This document shows, piece by piece, positions 12,638 to 26,878 of a stretch of 64,000 nucleotides of DNA. The DNA is from a virus. Lineage: Duplodnaviria > Heunggongvirae > Uroviricota > Caudoviricetes. The first letter of the stretch is position 1, and the number at the start of each line of letters is the position of its first letter. The notes beneath the pieces were generated by a model. It was not told where the DNA came from. It made no database searches and saw only the letters and a program-made list of their open reading frames with translations. The stretch covers positions 6,644 to 70,643 of the IMG/VR virus record IMGVR_UViG_3300013102_000003; one strand, given 5' to 3'. The position numbers were made by a program, and so were the translations under genes.

Positions 12638-12655
12638 CGTAATATAACTGAATAA

Positions 12656-12727: not shown

Positions 12728-12728
12728 C

Positions 12729-12938: not shown

Positions 12939-13141
12939 CGCGGAGCAGTAGAGCAGAATGACTCGCTCTCCGAGAGTTAGCAGGTAGCTTTTAAACTGCC
13001 TGCCAAATTATCGGATAAACGTTGGATTGGTCTCCAGCCTGCAATGCCAATGGAGTCTCCAGCCGATAGATGGCGGCGGCAGCAGTCTTGAAAACTGCCT
13101 GAGGTAAAACTCGTGTGGGTTCGACCCCCACAGGCTCCGCT
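12939..13141 (+). ncRNA. ~200-nt RNA with tRNA-like termini (perfect 7-bp acceptor gcggagc/gctccgc + T-arm) enclosing structured internal region; tmRNA-like or Y-RNA-like candidate
   Basis: 5' gcggagc 12940-12946 is the exact reverse complement of gctccgc 13134-13140, which directly follows the T-arm gtggg-ttcgacc-cccac. An internal perfect hairpin gcagt-cttgaaa-actgc lies at 13082-13098. Confidence 0.35.
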
Positions 13142-13248
13142 GACTCGACACTTGTAGCAAACAGGTGGTCATCAAAATGCTGGTAATGCTTGCGAGTAGC
13201 TAAGGCCAGACTGGTGCCAGTCCAACCGCCAGATGATTGTTGGACATT

Positions 13249-13333
13249 GGAAGAGAACCGAATGGCTAGGGACCGTCTTGGAAAGACGGTGCGGGTGTGA
13301 AAGCCCATGCGGGTTCGAACCCCGCCTCTTCCG
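13249..13333 (+). tRNA. tRNA-Ser (GGA), type II with long variable arm
   Basis: Acceptor ggaagag/ctcttcc perfect. Anticodon stem ccgtc/gacgg perfect with loop uuGGAaa. Variable arm ggg-tgtgaaag-ccc. T-arm gcggg-ttcgaac-cccgc. Confidence 0.7.
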
Positions 13334-13401
13334 CGAGTTGCACACTGGCATAGTCTTCGATAGACTATGACTACGCATCCAATACAAGGAAAAGGATTAC
13401 T

Positions 13402-14379
13402 ATGTTTATTGAACCCATGCTGGCCTCCAGCACTCCCGAGAAGAAGCGTGCTACGCTCTCCGACACAACTGGCTACGTGCTGGAACCCAAGCACGACGGC
13501 ATGCGGGCGGTCATCTCCAAGCGCGACGGAGAGGTCAAGATCTACAGCCGAGTCGGTCTGGAGTATCAGGAACACCTCCCGGCCCTTGTCTCGCAGCTTT
13601 CCCATCTCCCTGACGGAACCACCCTTGACGGTGAACTCATGATCGTCAGACACCGTACCGTCATTGACGGACACACGATTGCTGTGGCTGACTTCAACGC
13701 CACGATGCGTATCATGGGTTCCGGCCCGGAAAAGGCGATCAAGCGTCAGGAAGAGAGCACGATTGAGTTCTGTGTGTTCGACATGCCAAAGCTTGACGGA
13801 GTAAACCTCATGGGTTCATCCTACGACTCTCGGATGTTCGCCCTGAACGACTACCTCACCGGCAAGGAATGGATGATGCCTCACGTCTTCCAGAACGCAC
13901 GACTTACGGAGTGGGACAACGACTTCATCGACAAGCTGATGGCAGCAGGCATTGAGGGCGCGATCCTCAAGAACGTAGACTCGGTCTACATTCCGGGCAA
14001 GCGACGTGCCAACACGTGGTACAAGGTCAAGGCCGAACTCACCGCTGACGTGGTCGTAATGGGCTACACGGACGCCAAGGAAGGCAAGACAGGCAAATGG
14101 CTGGGAAAGGTAGGGGCACTAATTTTCGGTGCCTACAATGACCAGCAGGAGCTTGTGGAGGTCGGCCAGTGTTCCGGCATGACCGATGCAGAGCGTGACC
14201 GCTGGACATCGATCCGTGATTACGATACGGAGAATGCTCTCCGAGTCATCGAAGTGAAGTACAATGATCTGGTCGGTTCCGGCGAGTTCGGAACCCCGCG
14301 CCACCCGCAGTTCAAGATTGAGCGCATCGACAAGAACCCTGATGACTGCCTGATGGAGCAGTTCCGACTCGACAAGTAG
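13402..14379 (+). CDS. ATP-dependent DNA ligase
   Basis: Adenylation motif I LEPKHDGMRAV (KxDG). 325 aa, of minimal phage-ligase size, with downstream OB-like region motifs. Confidence 0.75.
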   Translation: MFIEPMLASSTPEKKRATLSDTTGYVLEPKHDGMRAVISKRDGEVKIYSRVGLEYQEHLPALVSQLSHLPDGTTLDGELMIVRHRTVIDGHTIAVADFNATMRIMGSGPEKAIKRQEESTIEFCVFDMPKLDGVNLMGSSYDSRMFALNDYLTGKEWMMPHVFQNARLTEWDNDFIDKLMAAGIEGAILKNVDSVYIPGKRRANTWYKVKAELTADVVVMGYTDAKEGKTGKWLGKVGALIFGAYNDQQELVEVGQCSGMTDAERDRWTSIRDYDTENALRVIEVKYNDLVGSGEFGTPRHPQFKIERIDKNPDDCLMEQFRLDK

Positions 14380-14409
14380 TTGACACCGCCTCTAAAAGGG
14401 TGGTATAAT
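14380..14409 (+). promoter_or_regulatory. Sigma-70-like promoter (TTGACA-18-TGgTATAAT) driving the next tRNA cluster
   Basis: ttgacaccgcctctaaaagggtggtataatagag lies directly after the ligase stop codon. Confidence 0.65.
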
Positions 14410-14442
14410 AGAGTAACAGTTCGGGATCTGTAAAATCCCAAT

Positions 14443-14515
14443 GGTTCTTTAGCTCAGTTGGTAGAGCGCGACTTTTACACAGTTGATGTCATGGGTTCGA
14501 GTCCCTTAGGAACCA
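14443..14515 (+). tRNA. tRNA-Val (TAC)
   Basis: D-arm tagctcagttggtagagc, stem cgact/agttg with loop uuTACac, acceptor ggttctt/aggaacc. Confidence 0.65.
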
Positions 14516-14588
14516 CGGAGAGCAGTTAACGGCTCTCAAGCAGATTGTGTGGGTTCGATTCCCTGCTGGTTGCAACACATCTGCGCTT
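14516..14588 (+). pseudogene. tRNA-like fragment (D-arm-like + T-arm-like hairpins, no acceptor pairing or anticodon arm)
   Basis: gagc-agttaacg-gctc then tgggttcgattccc. No complement for the ggagagc 5' end. Confidence 0.3.
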
Positions 14589-14669
14589 GCTCTCGTGGCG
14601 GAATGGCAGACGCGCTGGCTTCAAAACCCGGTATCGCAAGGTGTGTGGGTTCGAGTCCCACGGGGAGCA
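14589..14669 (+). tRNA. tRNA-Leu (CAA), type II
   Basis: Leu-type D-arm ggcggaatggcagacgcgc, loop cuuCAAaa, extended variable region, T-arm gtggg-ttcgagt-cccac. The acceptor has one mismatch. Confidence 0.55.
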
Positions 14670-14675
14670 CTGTAC

Positions 14676-14749
14676 GGCCCGGTAACTCAGACGGTAAGAG
14701 TGCCACTCTTATAAGGTGGAAGTCGAGGGATCAATACCCTCTCGGGCTA
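14676..14749 (+). tRNA. tRNA-Ile (TAT) with atypical T-loop
   Basis: Acceptor ggcccgg/tcgggct, D-stem actc/gagt, stem ccact/ggtgg with loop cuTATaa, T-arm gaggg-atcaata-ccctc (non-canonical loop). Confidence 0.5.
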
Positions 14750-14761
14750 CGCAACAAATAT

Positions 14762-14834
14762 GCCTCCATAGCTCAGTGGATAGAGCGCTTCGCTACGGAC
14801 GAAGAGGTCGGGAGTTCGAATCTCTCTGGGGGCA
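14762..14834 (+). tRNA. tRNA-Arg (ACG)
   Basis: D-arm tagctcagtggatagagc, stem cttcg/cgaag with loop cuACGga, T-arm gggag-ttcgaat-ctctc. Confidence 0.75.
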
Positions 14835-15049
14835 CTGATGTGTGAAAGATCGGCATGTTGTCGGAGTCTAAGGTCATAACTTGGATTGGTGGGTTCATCA
14901 CCCATACCGGTTGAATTCCGGATAGCACGTCACTAGGGAGTGTAAAGCAGTCAGGTGACTGTCTCTGTTTGCTAAACAGATGGTGGGTAAAACCATGGGA
15001 CTCGGTCTCTCTGCACTCCGCGTGAATACTCTAAAGAAATACTAGAAGG

Positions 15050-15274
15050 ATGGGTAATATGGATAGCGTAGAATCAATCCTAGTAGAAGAAGTTGAACTT
15101 CTCAAGAAAATCCTCGCATCGGTGGAGAATATCACAGGTATGCGCGAGATCCATGTACGCCTACCAGACGGTTCGGTAGAAATCTTGAAGCTGGAAGCAC
15201 GGGCAGAGGAACACGAGGAACTTCTTAGAAAGGCTGAACAACGGCTTGACACGTACCGCGAAAGTCTGGTATAA
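15050..15274 (+). CDS. Hypothetical protein (74 aa, coiled-coil-like) inside the tRNA array
   Basis: RBS aaggatgg. The ORF's last codons and stop form a tggtataatagag promoter -10. Confidence 0.45.
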   Translation: MGNMDSVESILVEEVELLKKILASVENITGMREIHVRLPDGSVEILKLEARAEEHEELLRKAEQRLDTYRESLV

Positions 15275-15275
15275 T
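15246..15275 (+). promoter_or_regulatory. Sigma-70-like promoter (TTGACA-18-TGgTATAAT)
   Basis: ttgacacgtaccgcgaaagtctggtataat. Drives tRNA-Leu(GAG) onward. Confidence 0.6.
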
Positions 15276-15286
15276 AGAGTAACAAT

Positions 15287-15369
15287 GTGAGTGTGGCGGA
15301 ATGGCAGACGCGCTAGCTTGAGGTGCTAGTGTCCTTATGGACGTGTGGGTTCGACTCCCATCATTCACA
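15287..15369 (+). tRNA. tRNA-Leu (GAG), type II
   Basis: Acceptor gtgagtg/cattcac. Leu D-arm gcggaatggcagacgcgc. Perfect stem ctagc/gctag with loop uuGAGgu. Variable arm gtcc-ttat-ggac. Confidence 0.7.
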
Positions 15370-15374
15370 CTGAG

Positions 15375-15403
15375 TTGACAGGTTCTTCGGAAGCTGGTAG
15401 ACT
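15375..15403 (+). promoter_or_regulatory. Sigma-70-like promoter (TTGACA-17-TAGACT)
   Basis: ttgacaggttcttcggaagctggtagact. Confidence 0.45.
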
Positions 15404-15536
15404 TGAATTATTCAGGAGGGGCGCGGTTCCTCTTTCTGACTAGGTAAGCGAAGCAGGCATGCAGATACCCTAGCTTGACCGTTGTACAGCGATCCACATT
15501 CTGTGATGGACCTCACTGCAACGGAAACCGCAGCAA

Positions 15537-15619
15537 GCCCAATTGGCGGAATGGCAGACGCGCTAGGTTTAGGCCCTAGTGGGGGTAACCCCGTGCGAGT
15601 TCGACTCTCGTGTTGGGCA
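15537..15619 (+). tRNA. tRNA-Leu (TAG), type II
   Basis: Acceptor gcccaat/gttgggc. Leu D-arm. Perfect stem ctagg/cctag with loop uuTAGgc. Variable arm gggg-taa-cccc. Confidence 0.7.
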
Positions 15620-15635
15620 CGAGTTTTTTGGTCTT
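15607..15635 (+). terminator. Terminator hairpin formed by tRNA-Leu(TAG) 3' end + downstream complement, followed by T6
   Basis: ctcgtg-ttggg-cacgag then tttttt. Confidence 0.5.
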
Positions 15636-15736
15636 TCTACTCAATAGAATAGACTAGGTTGACAACCTTCTAGATCATGAGCTAGAGTACAGTTTGGAAC
15701 GTTCGATCCAGAGGGTATACACTCGAAAGCGAACTT

Positions 15737-15809
15737 GCCTCTGTAGCTCAGTGGACAGAGCAGGACCCTTCTAAAGTCTTGGTCGCAGGTTCGAATCCTG
15801 CTAGGGGCG
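15737..15809 (+). tRNA. tRNA-Arg (TCT)
   Basis: D-arm tagctcagtggacagagc, loop cuTCTaa, T-arm gcagg-ttcgaat-cctgc, acceptor gcctctg/taggggc. Confidence 0.6.
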
Positions 15810-15919
15810 CGTTGTATGGACAAGGAGTCGGTAAGACTTTGTGTTCCACAGTTTCACCTATAGACTCTTTGCAGGGTGATATCGTCGTCGCAAAGGACAC
15901 AAGGCACCATCAACAATAT

Positions 15920-15991
15920 GTCTCTGTAGCTCAGCGGTAGAGCAGCGCACTCTTAATGCGCGGGTCGTGGGTTCGAACCCCACCGGGGACA
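15920..15991 (+). tRNA. tRNA-Lys (CTT)
   Basis: Perfect stem gcgca/tgcgc with loop cuCTTaa, T-arm gtggg-ttcgaac-cccac. Confidence 0.7.
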
Positions 15992-16012
15992 CGCAACAAC
16001 TGAATAAACAAT

Positions 16013-16095
16013 GGCAGTGTATCCAAGAGGACAAAGGGTGCTGACTGTAAATCAGATGTCGTAAGACTTCGTGAGTTCGAATCTCACCGCTGCCG
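16013..16095 (+). tRNA. tRNA-Tyr (GTA), type II
   Basis: Acceptor ggcagtg/cgctgcc perfect. Loop cuGTAaa. Long variable arm. T-arm gtgag-ttcgaat-ctcac. Confidence 0.6.
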
Positions 16096-16099
16096 CCAA

Positions 16100-16170
16100 G
16101 GGTCTATCGTTCAAAGGCAGGACCGCTGGCTTTTACCCAGCAGATGCGGTTTCGAGATCCGCTGGACCCA
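16100..16170 (+). tRNA. tRNA-Lys (TTT)
   Basis: Stem gctgg/ccagc with loop cuTTTac, T-arm gcggt-ttcgaga-tccgc, acceptor gggtcta/tggaccc. Confidence 0.65.
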
Positions 16171-16213
16171 CCACTATAGAGTATAATGGAACTACCAACA
16201 AGTAGGAGTTCCA

Positions 16214-16519
16214 GTGCTCGACAACCTCAAGACAAAATTCTACCTCTTCTGGGACAAATTCCAGAATGACCCCGTATTCTCTCGCAAGCTCAACGGATGG
16301 CTGGCGGTCATCTGGCTCGCAGCGTCCCTCCCGATCTGCATCTTCCTCTCAACATCTGTACCGTTCCTAGTGTTCGTCTCCGTGTACGCCATTGTCGCAA
16401 GCCACTGGAGCACGTGGCAGGCCTCACGAGTTGAGGTCAGGCAGGCGGAAGATTCCGTTGCCGAAGACATCCTCAAAGAACTCGATGAGAAGACCGATGT
16501 TGTGGTCACCAGAAAATAA
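16214..16519 (+). CDS. Membrane protein (2 TM helices)
   Basis: 101 aa with hydrophobic segments WLAVIWLAASLPICIFL and VPFLVFVSVYAIVASHW. A tataat promoter precedes it. Confidence 0.45.
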   Translation: MLDNLKTKFYLFWDKFQNDPVFSRKLNGWLAVIWLAASLPICIFLSTSVPFLVFVSVYAIVASHWSTWQASRVEVRQAEDSVAEDILKELDEKTDVVVTRK

Positions 16520-16599
16520 TGGTACAATAGTACTCTAGCGGACCGGCACCGCCTACAATCGAGTAGGCCGTGTCGGTCCCGTCAATTTAGGGGAGATCA

Positions 16600-16770
16600 T
16601 GAACCGCGAAGAGAAGATTTACATGGCCTACAAGGTTGCTCTGGCTGCTGCCAAGAAGGACAACGAAGCCACCGCCTCAATCCTAGCCATGATCCACACC
16701 GCCAAGGCTTTCAAGATCTCCGTGTTCACGATGCTTGACATTGCGAAAAGGCGCGGGAAAAAGAAGTAGC
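16600..16770 (+). CDS. Small basic protein (56 aa), not in ORF track
   Basis: RBS ggggag then ATG 16600. Lys-rich C-terminus. A structured 5' leader lies at 16536-16585. Confidence 0.35.
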
Positions 16771-16820
16771 AGGCTGGGGAGCCGCTTCGGCATCAACCAC
16801 CCACTAAAGATAGATATACT

Positions 16821-17228
16821 ATGTTCGATGAAATACCGTACACCCTTGTTGTCCCTGACTACACATACTACGCCTACGTAAATGATTGGACTGACGGTGA
16901 TACCGTCGATCTCCAGATCGTTGTCAAGCTGGACTTTGGGTTCCACAACTACAGCGCCCACCTCTTCAAGCTCAAGATGCGCCTGAACGGCCTTGACACT
17001 CCCGAGAACGGGCAGGTCAATCACGATGAGGCTACCGCATTCTCAGAGGCTCAGGCACCCGCTGGAACGCTTCTCAGGGCCAAGATCTTCAAGATGCCTA
17101 AGAACTACGCCAACACAGAGAAGTACGGACGCTATTTGGTGGAACTCTTCGAAAATGGTGAGAGCATCAATGAAGCCCTGCTTGCCTCTGGACTGGCGAA
17201 GAAGTACGATGGCGGAAAGAAATCTTGA
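16821..17228 (+). CDS. Staphylococcal-nuclease-like (SNase/thermonuclease) endonuclease
   Basis: DGDT…RLNGLDTPE…KYGRYL recapitulates the SNase catalytic signature. Confidence 0.65.
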   Translation: MFDEIPYTLVVPDYTYYAYVNDWTDGDTVDLQIVVKLDFGFHNYSAHLFKLKMRLNGLDTPENGQVNHDEATAFSEAQAPAGTLLRAKIFKMPKNYANTEKYGRYLVELFENGESINEALLASGLAKKYDGGKKS

Positions 17229-17299
17229 CAAACTGCCGCGCAGTGTGATAGTCGGCTGATGGTACAATAGAGTATAACAAACACTCTAAGGAGCCTTGA

Positions 17300-18082
17300 G
17301 TGACTACCATCAACGAATCCCACACAGCCAAGGGCTACACGCCTGCTGCTTACGTGAAGTCTGTCTTTGGGCAGGCCCGTACAATCGAGTCCATCACAAT
17401 CCACCACTGGGGCGTCTTCGGACAGAAGCACGACGACGTTGTGCGCTTTTTCGAGTCCGGACCCGGAACCACGTCGGCTCACTTTGTCGTCTCTGCTGGC
17501 CGCATTGACTGTCTGGTCAGCCCAGTAGATGCCGCGTGGCATGCAGGGTCGGCCAAGGGCAACGCTACCAGCATCGGAATTGAATGCCATCCAGAGGCAA
17601 CTCCGGAAGACTATGAGACTGTAGCAGAACTGATCCGTTTCCTGAGAACCGCCTACGGAAATTTGCCGCTCATTCCCCACCGCCAATGGCACGCAACAGC
17701 CTGCCCCGGAATCTGGGACCTTGCCAAGCTCGACAAGCTCGCAAAGGTTCAAGCGGCTGTCTCACCCGAATCTTCAACCGTCACACCTAACACACCAACG
17801 CCAACGAAAGAAGGCAAAATGCTCGTCATTACACAGTCCAAGGGAGACCCCGCAATCTGGATCGGTGACGGTGTTAGCCGCCGCCACATCCCAGACCCGA
17901 AGACCCTTGCAGATTACCAGAAGCTCGCCGCTTGGGGCGTCCTAAGCATCTACAAGAACGGCGAGATCCAGAACTTCCCACCGGAAACACTCGGTGCTGA
18001 CGTATCTAGCCAGAAGATTGAAGCCGTACAGGCTGAGGCTATCGCTGCTCGCGCAGCGGCCCTTGTGAAGGCCACTAAGTAA
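17300..18082 (+). CDS. N-acetylmuramoyl-L-alanine amidase (Amidase_2/PGRP-type lysin)
   Basis: HHWG…AHFVVS…AWHAG…IGIECH zinc-amidase motifs, plus a C-terminal putative wall-binding region. Confidence 0.7.
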   Translation: MTTINESHTAKGYTPAAYVKSVFGQARTIESITIHHWGVFGQKHDDVVRFFESGPGTTSAHFVVSAGRIDCLVSPVDAAWHAGSAKGNATSIGIECHPEATPEDYETVAELIRFLRTAYGNLPLIPHRQWHATACPGIWDLAKLDKLAKVQAAVSPESSTVTPNTPTPTKEGKMLVITQSKGDPAIWIGDGVSRRHIPDPKTLADYQKLAAWGVLSIYKNGEIQNFPPETLGADVSSQKIEAVQAEAIAARAAALVKATK

Positions 18083-18101
18083 GACCCACCGCGCTACATT
18101 G

Positions 18102-18140
18102 AAGGGCAGGAGAGGAATTTGACTCTCCTGCCCTTTGTTG
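18102..18140 (+). terminator. Terminator-like hairpin after amidase
   Basis: aagggcaggagag-N9-ctctcctgccctt (13-bp stem) followed by tgttgtt. Confidence 0.55.
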
Positions 18141-18220
18141 TTATACTATTGAGACCTGTCCATGCCGACCCCCCAACAAGAAAGAATAAGGCAGCCTAGC
18201 AACAACGACCCATAGGAATT

Positions 18221-18877
18221 ATGAAAAATCACACGAAGTACCCCGCCCTTGTCTCTACTATCCTGCTGTCCGTAGCCCTCTTCGCTACACCGGCCCACGC
18301 CGACACGGACACCACAATCCAGCGTGAGTCCGCTTCGGCAGACATCCCCGTTGCTGCTCCAGCCACTGCAAAGCTCAGCTATGCACGTACTGAGGTCACC
18401 ACCACAGCAGCTATCGAAGTCGTCCCTGTCTCTGAGCCTGTGTATCAGGACGCCGCACCGGAGAAAGTCGCCAACACACCAACCCAAACGCTTACACCTA
18501 AGGCTACAGCTACGCCCAAGGCCAAGGAAGCTCCAGCAGTTTCTGCCTCCGGTAAGGGAGCGGCCATAGCGTCCGCTGCTTACGCCCAGCTTGGAGTTCC
18601 ACAGGACTGCACGGCCCTTGTGACGAATTCCCTAGCCGCAGTCGGAATCCACTTCCACGACTGGCCCGCTGGCTACCTGACCCTTGGAACGGTCATCCCT
18701 GCTTCACAGGCACAGGCTGGAGACCTTGCCTACTACGCTAACGGTGGCACCGGAATGGCCCACATTGCAGTCTACGTCGGCAACGGCATGGCTGTACATG
18801 GCGGCTGGAACGGTGGAACCACAGCACTCTTCTCTGTGAACGTCGGCTCCGGCCCTGTTTTCATTAGAGTTGCGTAG
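18221..18877 (+). CDS. Secreted NlpC/P60-family peptidase (signal peptide)
   Basis: Signal peptide ending ATPAHA. Catalytic Cys in QDCTALV and His in MAHIAVYVGNGMAVHG. Adjacent to the amidase, so a possible second lysin activity. Confidence 0.6.
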   Translation: MKNHTKYPALVSTILLSVALFATPAHADTDTTIQRESASADIPVAAPATAKLSYARTEVTTTAAIEVVPVSEPVYQDAAPEKVANTPTQTLTPKATATPKAKEAPAVSASGKGAAIASAAYAQLGVPQDCTALVTNSLAAVGIHFHDWPAGYLTLGTVIPASQAQAGDLAYYANGGTGMAHIAVYVGNGMAVHGGWNGGTTALFSVNVGSGPVFIRVA

Positions 18878-19006
18878 CAGATCTAAATCTGGTACAATGG
18901 TATTGCCAGCGCTTCTCGGCAGAGGGATGAAGCTCATATCTTCGTCTGAGCGGGATCGACACCCGCCGTTGGTACTGTAAGATCAAGCAAACGACGAAAG
19001 AGAAAT

Positions 19007-19588
19007 ATGACAAACCCAGATTACACCGCACTTCTGTTCATCATCGACCGTTCCGGCTCCATGCGGACGATCAAGGAAGACATGGAGGGCGGAATCAACG
19101 CCGTTCTGGACGAGCAGAAGAAGATTCCGGGAACAGTTACCGTGGATGTCGCCTACTTTGACGACGAAATCATCTACGACGAGCGCTTCCTGTCCCTCGA
19201 TTCGGCATCCATCAAGATCGAACCTCGCGGCATGACGGCCCTGCACGACGCCATCGTGTCCAGCACCCGCAAGTTCGGTGAATCCCTGTCTCAGCTTGCA
19301 GAAGAGGACCGTCCCGGCACCGTCATGGTTATCATCGTTACTGACGGCCACGAAAACGTCTCCAAAGAGGCAAACATCTCGGATGTCAAGGACATCATCA
19401 CCCTCCAGCAGGACACCTACAACTGGGACTTCCTGTTCCTCGGTGCCAATCAGGACGCCATTCAGACCGGCGCTGACTTCGGCCTCCGTAAGGGCGCATC
19501 CATGACCTACGCAGCAACTCGCGGCGGCACCATGGACGCCTCCAACTTCATCTCCGCGTCAGTCACCAGCGCCCGTACCCGCGTTTAA
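19007..19588 (+). CDS. von Willebrand factor A domain protein
   Basis: MIDAS motif LFIIDRSGSM and a downstream …TDG… motif. 193 aa. Confidence 0.6.
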   Translation: MTNPDYTALLFIIDRSGSMRTIKEDMEGGINAVLDEQKKIPGTVTVDVAYFDDEIIYDERFLSLDSASIKIEPRGMTALHDAIVSSTRKFGESLSQLAEEDRPGTVMVIIVTDGHENVSKEANISDVKDIITLQQDTYNWDFLFLGANQDAIQTGADFGLRKGASMTYAATRGGTMDASNFISASVTSARTRV

Positions 19589-19610
19589 TCGCTGACAAGT
19601 TAGGTATACG

Positions 19611-19850
19611 ATGAAACAAAGAGATTTTGAGAAGATTTCGATCAGCAATGGAAACTTTCAAGGACTGAAGGTAGGGTTCGTATGCCCTCACCGACTATCT
19701 TATGAGGCTACAGAGAAAATCCTCGTACTTCTGCATAAGGTAAACGCACTGGCGTCGGATAAGAGCAACTTCATCACAGATGAGGAAGCCTCCGAACTGG
19801 ATGCCAGTGGTAAGATCCCCACGATAGACGCAGACGATTTCGATGACTGA
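19611..19850 (+). CDS. Hypothetical protein (79 aa)
   Basis: ORF with overlap into the next gene. No family recognised. Confidence 0.35.
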   Translation: MKQRDFEKISISNGNFQGLKVGFVCPHRLSYEATEKILVLLHKVNALASDKSNFITDEEASELDASGKIPTIDADDFDD

Positions 19851-20577
19851 CTACTTTGACGGCCCCCTCTTAGGATTCGACATCGAGAGCACTGGTGTTG
19901 ACCAGTGGGAGGATCGTGTGGTAACGTTCTCTATGGTGTACTCAGCCTACAGGGGAGCCAATCCGGAGATTCTGGAATGGCTCATTGACCCCGGAGTTGA
20001 GATTGCGGAAGGTGCCACAGCAGTACACGGGATCTCAACGGAGTACGCGGCAGAGTTCGGCAAGCAGGCGCACAACGCCATGCCGTACATTGCCCGTCGT
20101 ATGGAGAAGATCGTTGACCATGGAATCCCTTTCGTGATCTACAATGCGCCCTTCGACACGACGATGATCTACAACGAGTTCGAACGCTACAACGTTCCGC
20201 TCCGGTACACTAGGGAACAGATGTTCGCCAAAGTCATCGACCCTCTGGTCATCGACAAGGCGTGCGACAAGTACCGCAAGGGTTCCCGCAAACTGACGGA
20301 CACAGCCAAGCTCTACGGCTTCGACCTGACGAACGCCCACAACTCCACTGCGGACGTTTCGGCAACCCTCTATATCGCCCGCCAGCTTGGGAAGTTCTTC
20401 AAGCCGGAGATGACAATCGAGATGTTGCAGGAATTCCAGAAGGATGCTAAGATGGAGCAAAGCACTTCGTTCCAGCGCTACCTTCGGAAGAAGACGGACG
20501 AAGAGGGCAACCTCGTAGAACCAAACGCGGTCATCTCCACAGAGTGGCCGTTCCAAACGACGAAAGAGACACATTGA
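19843..20577 (+). CDS. DnaQ-like 3'-5' exonuclease (DEDDh)
   Basis: Exo I GFDIESTG, Exo II VIYNAPFD, Exo III HNSTADVSAT. Confidence 0.7.
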   Translation: MTDYFDGPLLGFDIESTGVDQWEDRVVTFSMVYSAYRGANPEILEWLIDPGVEIAEGATAVHGISTEYAAEFGKQAHNAMPYIARRMEKIVDHGIPFVIYNAPFDTTMIYNEFERYNVPLRYTREQMFAKVIDPLVIDKACDKYRKGSRKLTDTAKLYGFDLTNAHNSTADVSATLYIARQLGKFFKPEMTIEMLQEFQKDAKMEQSTSFQRYLRKKTDEEGNLVEPNAVISTEWPFQTTKETH

Positions 20578-20849
20578 CACAGACGACAACGCCTGATAAG
20601 CTAGTATCAGAAGTAATCGATGCATTCCTCAAGGGCTTCAACGCCCCTGAAAAACCTTCACAGGAAGCAGAGCCTAAGGACCCCGGAGAGCCGGTAGCCC
20701 CGAAGGACTTCTCGAATGTAGAGCCGTACACCGAAGCGCTCCGGATTCTCGGGGATCTTGAGGCCAATGCCGGAGATTTTGAAGACGACCTCCGTCTTCA
20801 GATTGCCGACCGGTACATCGAAATCGGACGCCAGCTTCTCAACGGTTGA
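20574..20849 (+). CDS. Acidic hypothetical protein
   Basis: TTG start at 20574 overlapping the upstream stop (ATTGA). The track's longer start at 20544 overlaps the exonuclease. Confidence 0.35.
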   Translation: MTQTTTPDKLVSEVIDAFLKGFNAPEKPSQEAEPKDPGEPVAPKDFSNVEPYTEALRILGDLEANAGDFEDDLRLQIADRYIEIGRQLLNG

Positions 20850-20875
20850 CAAGTAAGTAAATGGTATGGTATAAT
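20846..20875 (+). promoter_or_regulatory. Sigma-70-like promoter (TTGACA-18-TGgTATAAT) for tRNA cluster
   Basis: ttgacaagtaagtaaatggtatggtataat. Confidence 0.6.
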
Positions 20876-20888
20876 TAATGTTATACCT

Positions 20889-20965
20889 TGCGGAGTAGGG
20901 GAGTTCGGTTGTCCCCCGCTGGCCTCATAAGCCAGAGATCAAGAGTTCAAATCTCTTCTCCGCAA
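20889..20965 (+). tRNA. tRNA-Met/fMet/Ile2 (CAT)
   Basis: Perfect stem ctggc/gccag with loop cuCATaa, T-arm aagag-ttcaaat-ctctt, acceptor tgcggag/ctccgca perfect. Unusual 5-bp D-stem gggg…cccc. Confidence 0.6.
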
Positions 20966-20975
20966 CGAGGGCGTA

Positions 20976-21027
20976 TCGATTAGTTACCTTACCGAGAGGA
21001 AGGTATGCGGCAGGAAAGACTAATCAG
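20976..21027 (+). other. Nested stem-loop element between tRNAs
   Basis: Outer stem gattagt/actaatc encloses an inner stem tacctt/aaggta. Confidence 0.3.
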
Positions 21028-21099
21028 ACCCGTATAGCTCAACGGCAGAGCGACGAACTGTTAATTCGTAGGTTCTAGGTTCGAATCCTAGTATGGGTG
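21028..21099 (+). tRNA. tRNA-Asn (GTT)
   Basis: Stem acgaa/ttcgt with loop cuGTTaa, T-arm ctagg-ttcgaat-cctag, acceptor acccgta/tatgggt. Confidence 0.7.
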
Positions 21100-21182
21100 C
21101 GCAATTTAATGCCGCGAGGCCGTTAAACATCCCAAAAGGCGACTGGACCCAAACAGAGGTATGATCTACCACACAGATCAAT

Positions 21183-21255
21183 GGGGGCTTAGCTCAGTTG
21201 GTAGAGCACTTGCTTTGCAAGCAAGATGTCAAGGGTTCGAATCCCTTAGCCTCCA
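21183..21255 (+). tRNA. tRNA-Ala (TGC)
   Basis: gggggct acceptor. Stem cttgc/gcaag with loop uuTGCaa. T-arm aaggg-ttcgaat-ccctt. Confidence 0.8.
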
Positions 21256-21287
21256 CGCACCACCCTACGAGTAACGAAGGAGTTTCT

Positions 21288-21407
21288 ATGGAAGAAACAG
21301 TCGCACAAGAAATTGTGGCAAAAGCCCTTTATGAGCTTCAGATGATGAAGACTCGTGACTGTTTTGATTATGGTAAACTAAAGGCTGTACTTGAAGGTAA
21401 AGCTTGA
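21288..21407 (+). CDS. Small hypothetical protein (39 aa), not in ORF track
   Basis: Strong RBS aaggag 8 nt before ATG 21288. The track ORF 21198..21407 starts inside tRNA-Ala and is rejected. Confidence 0.3.
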   Translation: MEETVAQEIVAKALYELQMMKTRDCFDYGKLKAVLEGKA

Positions 21408-21478
21408 GCGGTTAGGTTTGCGGCTGCAACCTAATCCCCTTGTGCGAGTGCCGGAACGCACGCTCGATTTCCGGCTTT

Positions 21479-21552
21479 GGTATTGTGGAGCAGTTGGAGT
21501 GCTCGCCGTCCTGTCAAGACGGAGGTCGCGGGTTCAAGTCCCGTCAGTACCG
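21479..21552 (+). tRNA. tRNA-Asp (GTC)
   Basis: D-arm tggagcagttggagtgctc, perfect stem ccgtc/gacgg with loop cuGTCaa, T-arm gcggg-ttcaagt-cccgt. Confidence 0.75.
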
Positions 21553-21553
21553 C

Positions 21554-21627
21554 GTTGGCTGTAGCTCAGTTGGTAGAGCGTCTGGTTGTGGTCCAGAATG
21601 TCGCGGGTTCAAGCCCCGTCAGTCACC
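21554..21627 (+). tRNA. tRNA-His (GTG) with 5' G-1
   Basis: Stem tctgg/ccaga with loop uuGTGgu. An extra 5' G pairs with discriminator C, which is a His hallmark. T-arm gcggg-ttcaagc-cccgt. Confidence 0.65.
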
Positions 21628-21672
21628 CCACTTCAGTTAGAAGTACCCGGTAATAATAGAAACTAGGATGAT

Positions 21673-22044
21673 ATGAGAATAATAGCAGGAGCACATGGCT
21701 CGGGAAAGACGTACGAGACCATCCACGCAGCAGCAGCAGATCCCGATGGCTACTACGTATGTGAGGACTATCGGCAGTTGAAATTCCAATCTGAAGAGTA
21801 TGCGGATGTCATCCCGAAGGACAGGATGCTCACATACAAGCAGGTTCCCGATGAGACAAAGGCCCCGCTGAACCTCTACGTTGACGGTATGCGACACGGC
21901 CAAGAGATTCCGTCTCTCTGGTACACCCACCATAACCTTGTAACACTGGCCGTATCATCCAAGTACGCTGAAGAGAATCTACACCTTAGTGATAAATACA
22001 TTCAAACGGTACGTGATCACTTTGCTATGAAACGCAATACGTAA
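21673..22044 (+). CDS. Small P-loop protein
   Basis: Walker A GAHGSGKT at residues 6-13. 123 aa. Confidence 0.4.
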   Translation: MRIIAGAHGSGKTYETIHAAAADPDGYYVCEDYRQLKFQSEEYADVIPKDRMLTYKQVPDETKAPLNLYVDGMRHGQEIPSLWYTHHNLVTLAVSSKYAEENLHLSDKYIQTVRDHFAMKRNT

Positions 22045-22085
22045 CACAAAACAAAACAAAGAAAAGTAAAGTAGAAGGAGTATTT

Positions 22086-23054
22086 TTGCGTCAGCTTGTC
22101 ACGCTCGAAACCATTTCCGAAATCAATCCCATCCCAGATGCTGACCAAATTGAGGTAGCTAAAGTTAAGGGATGGAACGTTGTTGTTAAAAAAGGTGAGT
22201 TCTCCGTTGGTGAAGAAATTCTGTATTTCGAGATCGACTCATTTTTGCCCATCTCAGATCCGCGCTTTGCATTTCTGGAGCCACGTGGCGTCCGTGTACA
22301 GGATGGAGTCACGGGGCATGTCCTCAAGACCGTCCGTCTTCGTGGGCAGTACTCTCAAGGACTTCTCAAACCCGTCTCGGAATTCCCAGAAGGTATCCCT
22401 GATATCGCCAAGTTCGATCCGCCCCTGCCAGCAGGCCTCGACGGCTCGGTGGAGGGTCAATTCCTTTACCAGTTCGCACCAAAAACTGATGCTGAACGCA
22501 TCCAGAATCTCGGTCGAGTCCTCCCTGAAATTCTCTCGCACGAGTGGATTGCAACCGAGAAGATCGACGGCACTTCAACGACAATTGTCAATGACGACGG
22601 AACCATCCGGATCTGCTCCCGAAACTGGGAAATTAGTCGCCCCTCAGCACGTTTCGACCTTGCGGACAAACTCAATCTCGCTGAAATCCTTCCAGTAGAT
22701 CATACACTTCAGGGTGAATACTTCGGTGAGAACATCCAGAGCAACCCTCTCGGCATCAAGGGAACCGACTTCAAGGCCTTCAATCTCTACAAGAAGACCG
22801 AAGACGGCCCCGAAGCCATCCCGTTCAACGAGTGGCCCGACGCATTGCGCTCTCTACAGGTCCCTGTACTGCCTCTAAGGCTCCCGCAGACCATCGATGA
22901 CATCGTGGAGCAGGCTGACGGTTTGAAGTCTCAGATCGCCCCACAGCGCCTCGCAGAGGGTATCGTCTGGCAGGGTCCGAAGGGCTTCCCGTTCCTCGGT
23001 AACCGTCCGGGCTTCAAGGCCATCTCCAACAAGTACCTCGCCAAGCAAAAGTAA
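22086..23054 (+). CDS. ATP-dependent RNA ligase (nucleotidyltransferase superfamily, N-terminal OB-like domain + KxDG NTase domain)
   Basis: Motif I ATEKIDGTS (KxDG), TTG start. The N-terminal about 150 aa OB-like domain precedes the NTase domain, as in Rnl5/DraRnl-type ligases. A dedicated ATP-dependent DNA ligase is already present at 13402. Confidence 0.5.
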   Translation: MRQLVTLETISEINPIPDADQIEVAKVKGWNVVVKKGEFSVGEEILYFEIDSFLPISDPRFAFLEPRGVRVQDGVTGHVLKTVRLRGQYSQGLLKPVSEFPEGIPDIAKFDPPLPAGLDGSVEGQFLYQFAPKTDAERIQNLGRVLPEILSHEWIATEKIDGTSTTIVNDDGTIRICSRNWEISRPSARFDLADKLNLAEILPVDHTLQGEYFGENIQSNPLGIKGTDFKAFNLYKKTEDGPEAIPFNEWPDALRSLQVPVLPLRLPQTIDDIVEQADGLKSQIAPQRLAEGIVWQGPKGFPFLGNRPGFKAISNKYLAKQK

Positions 23055-23063
23055 AGGAGAAAC

Positions 23064-23843
23064 ATGACTGAAGTATTGGTTGGCTCCAAAGCCATGTACC
23101 ACTGGTTCTCGGACGCCCGAGAGCAGAAGGATGTAGACTACTTCTCCGAAAAGCTGGTCTTCGTTGTAGACGGTGCAAGGGTCAGGGTGGAGAACTTCTG
23201 GCACCCGGATCTCGCAAAGTGGAACTGGGGAGAAGTTGCAACTCCGGACGAGCTATACACTATCAAGGTCTCCCACGCTTTCTGGGAACTGAAGAACGGC
23301 TCTTGGGCCAAGCACATGATGGACGTGTTGTTTCTCCAGTCCAAGGGTGCTAAGCTCATCCCGGAGCTTTACAAGATCCTCTACAAGGTCTGGGAAGACA
23401 CCCACGGCAAGAAGAAGGTCAATCTTGAGGCTGACCCGGAGGAATTCTTCAATGACAAGATCGTCAAGCGCATCTATGACCACGACTCCATCCACGAGTC
23501 CGTAGCTTACTACGACCGTCCGCTCTTTGAGCGCATCCTGAGGGATGATTCGGATGTCGCCGTGGACAAGTCAAAGTGGGACGCCATGGATCACGAGGAC
23601 AAGCTGAAGATGGTCCGTGAGGAAATCTACGCCACCGCTCTTGAGCGCAAGCTGATTCCCTCCGACTACACCTCAAGCCCCGGAGCAGCCTACAACTGGA
23701 CGCTCCGTAAGACTATCACGTCCCTCACCAAGGGCTGGTTCGCATTGTTCGTTGTCGAAAACTTCAAAGACCTTACAAAGGCCGATGTCGATTACGTCAA
23801 GCGCCACAAGGACAACGCCCACATGCTAAGACCCTATAAGTAA
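23064..23843 (+). CDS. Hypothetical protein (259 aa)
   Basis: RBS aaggag then ATG. No family recognised. Confidence 0.45.
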   Translation: MTEVLVGSKAMYHWFSDAREQKDVDYFSEKLVFVVDGARVRVENFWHPDLAKWNWGEVATPDELYTIKVSHAFWELKNGSWAKHMMDVLFLQSKGAKLIPELYKILYKVWEDTHGKKKVNLEADPEEFFNDKIVKRIYDHDSIHESVAYYDRPLFERILRDDSDVAVDKSKWDAMDHEDKLKMVREEIYATALERKLIPSDYTSSPGAAYNWTLRKTITSLTKGWFALFVVENFKDLTKADVDYVKRHKDNAHMLRPYK

Positions 23844-23859
23844 AACGAAAGGCAACACA

Positions 23860-24213
23860 ATGTCAATCACACAGGAAATCATTGACTGGCTCAACACAGG
23901 AAATGATTACGATAATCTAGATAGCTACGGCACCTCTGAGTGGATGGAATTCTACGAGGAAATGCCCAACGACCGCTACAACTGGACCTCCAAACGGAAA
24001 CCCGTTATTCTGGCTTCGGGAGAGGCCCGCATCGTGCAGGACTTCGGCGGCGAAGGTCAGGGAGACCAGCGCTACGTCGTGTTCTCCGTAGGTGACAAGT
24101 TCTACCGGGTGGATGGCTACTACGCCTCTTGGGACGGCTCCAACTGGGATGACCCGACCCCGTATGAGGTTACACCCAAGGAAGTCACCGTTATCGAATA
24201 CGAGGCCGTCTAA
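23860..24213 (+). CDS. Paralog family B member 1 (about 115 aa, VVFSVxDxxFxVxGYYxSWxGxxWD motif)
   Basis: N-terminal IIDWLN, central YVVFSVGDKFYRVDGYYASWDGSNWD. Confidence 0.5.
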   Translation: MSITQEIIDWLNTGNDYDNLDSYGTSEWMEFYEEMPNDRYNWTSKRKPVILASGEARIVQDFGGEGQGDQRYVVFSVGDKFYRVDGYYASWDGSNWDDPTPYEVTPKEVTVIEYEAV

Positions 24214-24575
24214 TGTCAGCACTTACAGAGAAGATCGAACAAGAGATCATCGACTGGTACAATGAGGAAAACAAGGAGTACCTAGTCGAGGACGAGCAGG
24301 CTGAGCACCTTGACTCTGCCATTGACGAGTTCACTGACTCCTTGGACCGAAAGACGGGAATCCCTCTCCCGTCAGGACCGGCCAAACTGCTGGACCAGCA
24401 CGGCGGCGAAGATGAGGGTTCCGACTACTGGGTTGTCTTCAGTGTCAACGATGACATCTTCAAGGTCGAGGGCTACTACTCTTCTTGGGAAGGCGTAAAC
24501 TGGGACTCCGTCAAGCTCACCGAAGTTGAGGCAGTTCAGGTTCTCGTGACCAAGTACAAGAAGAAGGGTGTCTAA
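24213..24575 (+). CDS. Paralog family B member 2
   Basis: EIIDWYN…YWVVFSVNDDIFKVEGYYSSWEGVNWD. Start overlaps the previous stop (ATGA-type). Confidence 0.5.
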   Translation: MSALTEKIEQEIIDWYNEENKEYLVEDEQAEHLDSAIDEFTDSLDRKTGIPLPSGPAKLLDQHGGEDEGSDYWVVFSVNDDIFKVEGYYSSWEGVNWDSVKLTEVEAVQVLVTKYKKKGV

Positions 24576-24916
24576 TGGCATTCACCTTCAAGACCATCGG
24601 TCAGGAGATCGCCGTCTGGCACCTCCTGTCTTCCCGGTCCTACGAGGCCAACACGAACAAGGCATTCTATGACGCTGTAACCAGCGGAAAGGTTGTCGAA
24701 CTCAACGACGGCTATGTCCAACTGGTCAAGCACCATTCGGGCGGTTACGAGAACTACGATGACATCTCGTACGTCATCTTCGACTATGACGGCTCCACCT
24801 ACCGCATGGACGTTGACGAGTATGACTCGTGGGACGAAGAGAGCAGTGTCACTGAACCCTACCTTGTCATCCCGGTACCCGTCAATGAAGTACAATACGT
24901 AAGACGAAAGGTCTAA
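24575..24916 (+). CDS. Paralog family B member 3 (divergent)
   Basis: …SYVIFDYDGSTYRMDVDEYDSWDEES. Start overlaps the previous stop. Confidence 0.45.
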   Translation: MAFTFKTIGQEIAVWHLLSSRSYEANTNKAFYDAVTSGKVVELNDGYVQLVKHHSGGYENYDDISYVIFDYDGSTYRMDVDEYDSWDEESSVTEPYLVIPVPVNEVQYVRRKV

Positions 24917-25240
24917 ATGAGCAGCATCGATAAGATCAAGCAGGAAATCCTTGAGTGGGACGCATCCAACAAGGACCAGTACGACAAGTGGAAGGAACCC
25001 AACGCCAACTTCGTTGATCGGTCAGAGAGCCACGGAGACGTAGTCCTCCCGTCAGGCAGGGTCGAGTTCGTTGACATCGAGCGAGACGGAGACACTGCCC
25101 TAGCTGTATTCACCGTCAACGACGAACTGTTCGCTCTCGCGGGCTATTACAGTTCGTGGGGCAGCGAGTGGGACAACGGCCTTTTCCGTGTGGAGAAGCG
25201 CACCGTCACCCTTGAGCGCTACGAACGGGTGGACAGTTGA
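24917..25240 (+). CDS. Paralog family B member 4
   Basis: EILEWDA…LAVFTVNDELFALAGYYSSWGSEWD. Confidence 0.5.
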   Translation: MSSIDKIKQEILEWDASNKDQYDKWKEPNANFVDRSESHGDVVLPSGRVEFVDIERDGDTALAVFTVNDELFALAGYYSSWGSEWDNGLFRVEKRTVTLERYERVDS

Positions 25241-25423
25241 TCTGGCTGGGTGCACTAGGCACCCTAGTCCTGTTCATCCTCCAGATGACCGGCCTGATCG
25301 CCATCTCCGGATGGCTGATCCTTACCCCGCTGCTGATCGGCGTCAGCCTGACCGTCATCTTCTGGGTAATTATCCTGATTATCGGGGTCTTGACCAGCTA
25401 ACAATAATGTAGTAAAATAGAAG

Positions 25424-25452
25424 TACCGCCTCCACGTGGGGCGGTATTTTTA
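25424..25452 (+). terminator. Rho-independent terminator
   Basis: taccgcc-tccacgtgg-ggcggta followed by ttttt. Confidence 0.65.
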
Positions 25453-25453
25453 T

Positions 25454-25527
25454 ACCCCTGTAGCTCAGTTGGATAGAGCGTCCGCCTCCTAAGCGGAAGG
25501 TCACCAGTTCGAATCTGGTCAGGGGTA
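25454..25527 (+). tRNA. tRNA-Arg (CCT)
   Basis: Acceptor acccctg/caggggt perfect. Stem tccgc/gcgga with loop cuCCTaa. T-arm accag-ttcgaat-ctggt. Confidence 0.8.
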
Positions 25528-25547
25528 CTCACAGAAAGGAAAGACAA

Positions 25548-26060
25548 ATGAAAACAATCGTATATTTCGATGTTGACGGCGTCATCAACAGCTTCCACCG
25601 GACCAAGCAGGCCGGATGGAAGGGCGAGTGGGAGCTTGCACAGGTCATCGGCTACAAGATCCACTGGTACACTGACCTCGTTGAGGAAATCAACAAGCTC
25701 TCCAAGATGGAGAACGTCGAGGTCAAGTGGCTCACCACGTGGCAGGACAAGGCCGTAACGGATCTGTGCCCCGCTCTGGGGATCGAGGGCACCTCTTGGG
25801 ACGTTCTCTACGCTGCGGATCAGGAAGACCTGTTCGACCTGTCCAACGGCTGGTGGAAGCTCCGTGCGATCATCAAAGACTACAACATCAGCAAGCCTGA
25901 TAAGATGGTCTGGATTGACGATGACTTCAAGTACGAAGGCAACGCCATGGAGTGGGCCAACTTCCTTGGACCCGAGATTATCCACCCTGTCTCCCCGTTC
26001 ACTGACTGGGGGATGACAAAGGAAGATTTTAATGGTATAATAGAGTTTATCAACAACTAG
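25548..26060 (+). CDS. HAD-superfamily phosphatase
   Basis: Motif I VYFDVDGVIN near the N-terminus and motif IV WIDDD. 170 aa. Confidence 0.55.
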   Translation: MKTIVYFDVDGVINSFHRTKQAGWKGEWELAQVIGYKIHWYTDLVEEINKLSKMENVEVKWLTTWQDKAVTDLCPALGIEGTSWDVLYAADQEDLFDLSNGWWKLRAIIKDYNISKPDKMVWIDDDFKYEGNAMEWANFLGPEIIHPVSPFTDWGMTKEDFNGIIEFINN

Positions 26061-26070
26061 TTGATGAACT

Positions 26071-26142
26071 GCTTCCGTAGCTCAGTGGTAGAGCGCGTTC
26101 TTGGTAAGAACGAGGTCACGGGTTCAATCCCCGTCTGAAGCT
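26071..26142 (+). tRNA. tRNA-Thr (GGT)
   Basis: Perfect stem cgttc/gaacg with loop uuGGTaa, T-arm acggg-ttcaatc-cccgt. The acceptor has one mismatch. Confidence 0.65.
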
Positions 26143-26147
26143 CGGTG

Positions 26148-26251
26148 CTTTCCGTTCCCCATAGTTGGCCTATTGGGTACGTTGATAGGCCTAACCCTAT
26201 AGTGTCAACGCACTGGGGAGGGTCCGTGGGTTCGAATCCCACACGGAAGGC
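26148..26251 (+). ncRNA. Atypical 104-nt tRNA-like RNA with 8-bp acceptor stem, 6-bp internal stem and no canonical 7-nt anticodon loop
   Basis: ctttccgt (26148-26155) pairs 8/8 with acggaagg (26243-26250), which follows the T-arm gtggg-ttcgaat-cccac. D-like stem tcccca/tgggta. Internal 6-bp stem cgttga/tcaacg encloses 19 nt. Confidence 0.35.
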
Positions 26252-26260
26252 ATTCCACTT

Positions 26261-26331
26261 GCGGGTATGGATGAAAGGCAAGTCGTTTGGTTGCAACCCA
26301 AAAGATCTCGGTTCGATTCCGGGTTCCCGCT
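26261..26331 (+). tRNA. tRNA-Cys (GCA)
   Basis: Perfect stem tttgg/ccaaa with loop uuGCAac, T-arm ctcgg-ttcgatt-ccggg. The acceptor has one mismatch. Confidence 0.55.
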
Positions 26332-26878
26332 CCACTTAATCGCACGACCCTACGAAAGGACTGTCATGACAATCGCCACGCTACCAGTAAGAGTGTTCAA
26401 CGCCTCCTACGAAGACCTAGGACCCACCACACTGGATCGCGCCATTGCGCTTGTCGAAGTTCAGGGACGTGCGGAAATCATCATGGTTGATGAGAACACC
26501 ACCATCCGAACAATGGGTGGCCGTGAGTTCTTCCTGCCGAAGATCATTCGCCTGCTCACGATGCGCAAGGTATCCTTCCACTTCGCTCCGGAGACGTGGT
26601 CCAAGCACGGTGTCATCAAGCGTGACAACGCCACCTGTGCGTACTGTGGGAAGCATGGAGACACGGTGGACCACATCCTCGCCAAGGACTTGGGAGGAAG
26701 GGACGAGTGGATGAACACCGTAGCAGCCTGTGTCAAGTGTAACGGCCAGAAGTCCAACCTGACAATGGAGGAATGGGGTAAGCCTGTCCTCTTCGACATG
26801 TCTGAGGACCGTATGATCCCTCGCAAGATGTACTTCAGAGGCGAAAACCCTAGGCGCAAGCGCAAGAAGGACCGATAG
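26267..26878 (+). CDS. HNH endonuclease
   Basis: CAYCGKHGDTVDHILAKDLGGRDEWMNTVAACVKCNGQK HNH/zinc motif. The annotated start overlaps tRNA-Cys, so the true start is probably a downstream ATG (for example the M in …RTVMTIATLP). Confidence 0.6.
   Translation: MDERQVVWLQPKRSRFDSGFPLHLIARPYERTVMTIATLPVRVFNASYEDLGPTTLDRAIALVEVQGRAEIIMVDENTTIRTMGGREFFLPKIIRLLTMRKVSFHFAPETWSKHGVIKRDNATCAYCGKHGDTVDHILAKDLGGRDEWMNTVAACVKCNGQKSNLTMEEWGKPVLFDMSEDRMIPRKMYFRGENPRRKRKKDR

Follow-up and report, generated by a model that had tools for sequence, protein, structure and literature searches.

What do four small paralogous genes, packed end to end inside the tRNA island of a virus genome, contribute to that virus? 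The genes lie at positions 23860-25240 of a 64,000-nucleotide stretch of IMG/VR virus record IMGVR_UViG_3300013102_000003 (Caudoviricetes), which we refer to as the window, and a preliminary description of the sequence took them for a locally amplified, diversifying family with every start codon overlapping the previous stop codon, of a kind typical of host-range or anti-defence loci. The best overall explanation that we can offer is a different one, and we consider it fairly probable: the four genes, here called m1 to m4, would encode anciently diverged partners of a phage nucleotidyltransferase (NTase) of the polymerase beta (pol-beta)/MenT-AbiEii type. The genes concerned are as follows (aa, amino acids; pI, isoelectric point).

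23064-23843, + strand: NTase gene, 259 aa, Pfam DUF7277 + DUF7275, directly upstream of m1 (23860)
23860-24213, + strand: paralogue 1 (m1), 117 aa, pI 4.06; canonical, with an intact FGGEGQGD loop and a GYYASWDG motif
24213-24575, + strand: paralogue 2 (m2), 120 aa, pI 4.22; near-canonical loop HGGEDEGSD; the member used for structure prediction
24575-24916, + strand: paralogue 3 (m3), 113 aa, pI 4.49; divergent subfamily with N-terminal QEIxVW, core YRMD...SWD and a degenerate Gly-rich loop
24917-25240, + strand: paralogue 4 (m4), 107 aa, pI 4.45; degenerate loop ERDGD, core GYYSSW-GSEWD

The evidence that carries this explanation is the linkage between the two families, which was found from either side. 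All 23 loci retrieved by similarity to the small protein alone (the window, Arthrobacter phage Atuin, Streptomyces phage BillNye, Gordonia phage ClubL, Rhodococcus phage NiceHouse and 18 IMG/VR contigs) have one to four tandem copies of the small gene and, immediately before these and in the same orientation, a DUF7277/DUF7275 gene. When viral contigs were retrieved by the NTase alone, 69 of 75 carried one to four copies downstream (one copy in 10, two in 16, three in 25 and four in 18). Of the remaining six contigs, three are truncated and three hold distant partial NTases; all 69 informative loci are linked. A scan of cellular genomes, in which 185,579 bacterial and archaeal species were represented by a single genome each, recovered 16 loci, mostly from Actinobacteria, and adjacent copies of the small gene are present at 16 of 16; one of these loci is flanked by phage-type nucleotide-metabolism genes.

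The order of the two genes is reversed at some loci. In vibriophage KVP40 a family member, KVP40.0036 (3e-11), is encoded directly upstream of the NTase KVP40.0037, and a 695-kb Joint Genome Institute (JGI) contig (L102, positions 355617-372384) has an NTase with two family copies upstream. The linkage thus outlasts rearrangements of gene order and extends to proteobacterial phages. The JGI contig, possibly from a huge phage, also encodes an RNA ligase, a 2',5' RNA ligase/LigT-like protein, a YqeY-like protein and NAD synthase within 8 kb.

The two families also occur within a single polypeptide. ORF138 of Alteromonas phage V22, first found by a Foldseek search of viral models and then checked as a single 383-aa protein, joins an NTase (residues 2-254, 1e-55) to a domain of the small family (residues 276-383, 6.6e-15), and it reads as a Rosetta-stone fusion of the two. 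Such fusions are rare, as none was found among the best 120 matches to the core-domain profile. The NTase itself is matched by 737 phage records. Its T-even-type form, RB69 ORF134c, is a longer DUF7277+DUF7275 protein (318 aa) that is widespread in T4-like phages; in RB69 (L099) it is encoded in the e.2-e.6 cluster, next to the lysozyme gene e.

Since the small genes are invariably linked to a MenT/AbiEii-like NTase gene, and fused to it in one phage, their products are likely partners of the NTase, and the suggestion of a free-standing host-range or anti-defence locus found no support; the module as a whole may still have an anti-defence role. We regard the association between the two families as clean and general, and as tying both of them to the biology of tRNA-targeting NTases, while the mechanism is something that we infer. 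That the small proteins work with the NTase as one unit seems to us likely.

The window NTase carries a pol-beta signature consisting of G7-S8, 14 residues and then D23-V-D25-Y, a spacing one residue beyond the range described for AbiEii/MenT, hG[GS] x9-13 Dh[DE]h (PMC10435456). Across 38 NTase homologues D23 and D25 never vary, and G7 and S8 are kept in at least 90%; further invariant residues, considered as possible counterparts of the DUF1814-specific C-terminal motifs III and IV, are K68/S70/H71, R136/H140/D141/S142/H144 and R185-E186-E187/E194-R195. The three best structural matches of the enzyme in the PDB are MenT1, MenT4 and MenT3. In sequence searches the window NTase had no match to Pfam AbiEii (PF08843) at E <= 0.01, seven of the 38 homologues gave sub-threshold AbiEii matches (the best at 1.9e-4), and the NTase profile found no match among PDB sequences. 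Because the AbiEii matches are sub-threshold and the search of PDB sequences was empty, we term the NTase MenT/AbiEii-like at the level of fold and superfamily, and not a member of the family. It is apparently catalytically intact and of the MenT/AbiEii kind. MenT toxins add nucleotides to the 3' ends of tRNA, thereby blocking translation. Small, unrelated partners hold these toxins in check, and in the case of MenT1 a small antitoxin does so by lying over the electropositive active-site cavity. M. tuberculosis encodes four MenAT systems, and it has been suggested that MenT/AbiEii NTases act against the tRNAs of phages (PMC10435456).

The kinship of the four small genes, as first described, stood up to pairwise and profile alignment. 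BLASTP relates m1 to m2 at 1.3e-21, m2 to m4 at 6.6e-15 and m1 to m4 at 3.9e-13, and the shared motifs quoted in the preliminary description were found; with similarity far above chance, these alignments confirm that m1 to m4 are true paralogues. The third gene had been singled out as divergent, and its BLASTP matches to m1 (1.3e-5) and m2 (2.4e-4) are indeed weaker. Against a hidden Markov model (HMM) built from canonical members only it scores 16.4 bits, whereas the highest score among about 2000 shuffled sequences was 10.1. Its orthologue in Atuin, gp151 (2e-15), also matches m1 (4e-8), and 25 of the 74 family sequences in our alignment A3 fall in the m3 subfamily. Taken as sequence comparisons, these results confirm m3 as a divergent yet genuine member of the family.

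Nucleotide similarity between the copies is almost nil, the best match being 81% over 42 nucleotides. Atuin (194 kb), the nearest relative in GenBank, has a four-gene array, gp148-151, at the equivalent place, with the divergent member last in the array and not third as in the window. In the closest viral contigs (L005/L006) the positional orthologues of the first, third and fourth genes (c1, c3 and c4) are 55-56%, 48-50% and 41-45% identical, and m2 (c2) groups with Atuin gp148 and with L012_c1. The duplications must be old, because the copies share almost no nucleotide similarity and the four-gene set is common to Atuin and related viral contigs. Recent local amplification was rejected, given the near-zero nucleotide similarity between copies and the orthologue groups in other genomes, and that part of the preliminary description falls away. 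Its view of the family as diversifying is borne out: in the same genome pairs the partners are 41-56% identical, whereas the flanking enzymes are 80-91% identical (NTase 84-86%, RNA ligase 80-91%). Faster divergence of the partner than of the enzyme is an asymmetry commonly described for antitoxins and toxins. Copy number varies from one to four among relatives, and a close relative, L007, whose NTase is 80% identical, has one copy only. The array is, to judge from these comparisons, an old, maintained gene set that is evolving fast.

All four ORFs (open reading frames) start with ATG, and the identical four genes were called in an independent metagenome assembly (ENA). The proposed overlap of every start with the previous stop is present at the m1/m2 and m2/m3 junctions, where TAATG gives an overlap of 1 nucleotide, and absent at m3/m4, where the genes abut (TAAATG). 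A Shine-Dalgarno-like GAAAGG, GAGG or GAAGGG lies about 6-10 nucleotides 5' of every ATG, and together with the overlapping or abutting junctions it is consistent with coupled, stoichiometric expression of m1 to m4, which may be how the array is read. A scan of the window with the family HMM found no further copies besides these four. The array is followed by one more ORF.

25237-25401, + strand: membrane ORF, 54 aa, almost wholly hydrophobic, with two predicted membrane helices; its TTG start overlaps the m4 stop (TGA)

This ORF was likewise called as a gene in the ENA assembly. It has weak PHROG matches only, the relatives compared do not keep it next to the array, and its membership in the module is uncertain.

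Among catalogued families, phrog_18295 is matched by m1 (1.2e-19), m2 (6.8e-16) and m4 (5.7e-9), and phrog_8206 and phrog_13591 are also matched by m1 and m2; m3 and its subfamily fall outside PHROG 18295, 8206 and 13591. The family HMM built from A3 recovers all four genes (m1 8e-44, m2 4e-37, m3 5e-32, m4 8e-25), scores that are partly circular because A3 includes m1 to m4 themselves. Pfam searches, with m1 to m4 singly and over 74 homologues, returned only sub-threshold noise (DUF3472, DUF1493, Turandot, YqhI), and a housekeeping or other known domain in m1 to m4 was rejected on these matches. No sequence relatives with solved structures were found for the small family. A profile search of 5.8 billion proteins yielded 87 relatives, with neither functional annotation nor Pfam domain in any of them, and an HMM search of 1.84 billion cluster representatives yielded 2,817 clusters at E <= 1e-3 and 681 at E <= 1e-10; the resulting size of the partner family, about 2,800, counts clusters at 50% identity.

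Proteins of the family are about 100-140 aa long and acidic throughout (median pI 4.3, range 4.05-5.1, 74 sequences). Their conserved features are a Gly-rich acidic loop, GGEGxGD, the motif GYYxS[WY] and a C-terminal EV..V.V..Y segment. All three are present in m1; the loop is near-canonical in m2 and degenerate in m3 and m4, which keep Y..S and EV/V. In very distant members the only invariant positions are G-G-E, Y..S and E-V. Across the 74 sequences of A3, S91 and V105 are the sole invariant residues, with Y89 nearly so, and a 10-sequence core alignment that includes Vibrio and Alteromonas members (A6) keeps Y-x-S. A strict GGEGxG loop occurs in at least one copy at 51 of 74 loci, and the possibility that every locus retains a canonical GGEGxG copy was rejected on this count.

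For m2, the AlphaFold2 model (predicted local distance difference test, pLDDT, 91.9; predicted template modelling score, pTM, 0.83) has two N-terminal helices and a five-stranded antiparallel meander. In this model S91 sits in the turn that connects the last two strands, and the C-terminal EVxPxxVTVxxY segment is of high confidence and has no intramolecular strand partner. The predicted fold has no significant match among PDB structures, nor was a recognisable nucleic-acid-binding fold found. About 20 of the top 150 representative clusters show two matched stretches per protein, and the four such proteins that we inspected (P0089, P0098, P0180 and P0183) are two-copy fusions, usually with a degenerate copy followed by a canonical one. 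Fusion of copy to copy suggests that the family may form hetero-oligomers.

The module is embedded in a tRNA island at 9090-26334 with 29 tRNA genes, all on the + strand and covering most amino acids; 25 of the 29 lack an encoded 3' CCA. The other genes in and around the island are listed below.

17300-18082: Amidase_2, a lysis-type gene inside the tRNA island
18221-18877: NlpC/P60 peptidase, a lysis-type gene inside the tRNA island
19843-20577: RNase T-like exonuclease
22086-23054: RNA ligase (PHA02142 OB fold + RNA_ligase)
25548-26060: HAD_SAK_2 RNA-repair-type phosphatase
26267-26878: HNH endonuclease ORF; its longest frame overlaps tRNA-Cys (26261-26334), and an independent call starts later and gives 170 aa
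27006-28403, - strand: 465-aa ORF with no Pfam match at E <= 0.01
37240-38067: canonical PolyA_pol-type (CCA-adding class) tRNA nucleotidyltransferase
38147-39442: PIN-PhoH fusion protein

The possibility that the DUF7275 protein is the CCA-adding enzyme of the phage is weakened by the canonical PolyA_pol-type enzyme at 37240-38067; because that enzyme can supply CCA, the DUF7275 protein is not needed for this purpose. Relatives of the window RNA ligase were found within 4 kb of the module at four of the 75 NTase loci, all of them close relatives, and RNA ligases of other types are encoded near the module in BillNye and in the 695-kb contig. The HNH ORF resembles a homing endonuclease that has inserted itself between tRNA genes, and the 465-aa ORF marks a switch in the direction of transcription just past the island. 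Endolysin genes of Atuin lie at the place that matches the lysis-type genes at 17300-18877. A match of 42 nucleotides (97.6%) between positions 25461-25502 and an unannotated human-gut 'Bacteriophage sp.' (MT836783) falls inside tRNA-Arg(cct) and most likely reflects conservation of the tRNA sequence only.

Taking these observations together, the functional unit would be a cassette of five co-oriented, tightly packed genes, the NTase and its four partners, set in a tRNA/RNA-repair island. From gene context, the small proteins would attach to the NTase, probably to one another as well, and control it. By analogy with MenT toxins, the substrate of the NTase would be the 3' ends of tRNA or other RNA. 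In the version that we prefer, the small proteins would be antitoxin-type gatekeepers: being acidic, they would occupy the nucleic-acid-binding face of the NTase and compete with its substrate, and the divergent, fast-evolving paralogues would provide alternative or combinatorial control. Physical binding and gating by the small proteins are steps that we infer, and a role that is specifically inhibitory or gating is in our estimation possible, if somewhat short of probable. Extended further, phages of Actinobacteria, and some of Proteobacteria, might carry a MenT-like NTase acting on tRNA or RNA ends and gated by an expandable array of fast-evolving acidic partners, a viral 'toxin plus multiple antitoxin/sensor' module for taking over host translation or for countering host attack on tRNA, in which each paralogue would be tuned to a different host or signal; this larger picture is speculative, and we think it rather doubtful.

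Several points weigh against the gatekeeper proposal. Its mechanism is read from the gene neighbourhood. Classical AbiE/MenAT systems usually have one antitoxin gene, placed upstream, whereas the partners described here are mostly downstream and number one to four. The covalent fusion in V22 would suit a specificity or substrate-binding domain just as well as an inhibitor. No small-family copy is detectable next to RB69 ORF134c, and because T-even-type DUF7275 proteins have no detectable partner, the enzyme can evidently exist without one. With the strict Gly-rich loop confined to 51 of 74 loci, no single obvious functional site would seem to be universal. The link to tRNA is partial as well, with tRNA genes within 4 kb of the module at 35 of 75 loci only and nucleotide-metabolism genes as its neighbours elsewhere, and because of this the choice of tRNA as the substrate of the NTase, made by analogy, may be wrong.

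The strongest competing account shares the linkage and fusion evidence in full. It holds that the small proteins are specificity or adaptor subunits, each docking on the NTase and directing it to different substrates (tRNAs, RNAs or other), with the four copies forming either four alternative holoenzymes or one hetero-oligomeric holoenzyme. Covalent fusion is indeed most natural for a constitutive functional domain; the paralogues are divergent, old and sorted into conserved orthologue groups, as subfunctionalisation predicts; tandem fusions of a degenerate and a canonical copy exist; and the unpaired C-terminal EVxPxxVTVxxY strand of the m2 model could mean strand addition to a partner. We nevertheless find this account unlikely, as uniformly acidic proteins (pI about 4.3) are poor candidates for recruiting RNA, the closely related phage with an 80% identical NTase (L007) manages with one copy, and the structure search did not recover a recognisable nucleic-acid-binding fold.

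A function apart from the enzyme is less probable again. In this account each paralogue would be a free-standing anti-defence or host-range protein that neutralises a host factor of its own (host toxins of the MenT/AbiE type, for instance, or defence proteins that bind nucleic acid), and adjacency to the NTase would reflect shared regulation or captured toxin-antitoxin ancestry instead of a complex. The small proteins do have the features commonly described for phage anti-defence proteins, being small, acidic, fast-evolving and variable in copy number. The hosts are Actinobacteria, of which M. tuberculosis alone has four MenAT systems, and the surrounding island, with its 29 tRNAs, RNA ligase, HAD_SAK_2 phosphatase and CCA-type NTase, resembles a counter-measure against attack on tRNA. 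PADLOC returned no match for m1 to m4, and catalogued anti-phage defence and anti-defence families gave no profile match, nor was there a structural match to a solved anti-defence protein. We consider this account improbable.

Finally, the small proteins could be substrates or effectors that the NTase nucleotidylylates at the invariant Tyr/Ser of GYYxS[WY], switching an activity of their own, in the way that the MNT antitoxin AMPylates HepT on tyrosine; linkage and fusion would fit, S91 is invariant and Y89 nearly so in A3, Y-x-S is kept in A6 and S91 is modelled at a turn between the last two strands, but conserved aromatic and Ser residues may be merely structural and the enzymes closest to the NTase in structure modify tRNA 3' ends and not proteins, so that we give this idea very little credence.

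If the small proteins are partners of the NTase, the phage side would hold a MenT/AbiEii-related enzyme paired with a new, rapidly evolving and uncharacterised partner family. The pairing offers a testable way into two large families that lack an assigned function, DUF7275/DUF7277 and PHROG 18295/8206, and bears on the role of non-tRNA genes in phage tRNA islands. Should it be true that the partners inhibit MenT-type enzymes, they would be possible tools or leads against the toxins of M. tuberculosis.

The collection of papers searched contained no description of DUF7275 or of the pairing between the NTase and the small family. PHROG 18295, 8206 and 13591 are existing catalogue entries of the small family, and they carry neither a function nor a link to the NTase. 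The class II CCA-adding enzyme (PolyA_pol, PF01743) is comparable in that both it and the DUF7275 protein are pol-beta superfamily NTases encoded by a phage with many tRNA genes; unlike it, the DUF7275 protein has no match to PF01743, and the window has a separate, canonical CCA-adding enzyme. Fused forms are known among the toxSAS systems, and a second likeness, of logic only, can be drawn between the V22 fusion and toxSAS of the CapRel/FaRel type. There, an enzyme acting on the acceptor end of tRNA is controlled by a small partner domain, separate or fused (the biology of toxSAS is summarised in PMC11559606). The catalytic folds are unrelated, RelA/SpoT in toxSAS versus a pol-beta NTase here, and toxSAS are host defences triggered by phage proteins, whereas the present module is phage-encoded.

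Among known systems the MenAT/AbiE NTase toxin-antitoxin pairs come closest, and for these we compared DUF1814/AbiEii (PF08843), M. tuberculosis MenT1, MenT3/TglT and MenT4 with MenA1, MenA3 and MenA4, and AbiEi-AbiEii of S. agalactiae. The window NTase shares with them the pol-beta core and motif, and MenT1, MenT4 and MenT3 are its top PDB matches. As in MenT1-MenA1, where MenA1 has 68 aa (PMC10435456), the enzyme is paired with small proteins that lack a DNA-binding domain. The hosts are Actinobacteria, M. tuberculosis itself having four MenAT systems. The present module differs from these pairs in that its NTase falls below the AbiEii threshold and belongs to families of its own, DUF7277/DUF7275, and in that its partners have no relation to known antitoxins and their predicted fold is without a solved relative. 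The partner, moreover, is usually encoded downstream, its copies are divergent and number one to four, and fusion to the enzyme occurs occasionally. Unlike MenAT/AbiE, the module is phage-borne, with 737 phage NTase records as against 16 loci in the genomes of 185,579 cellular species.

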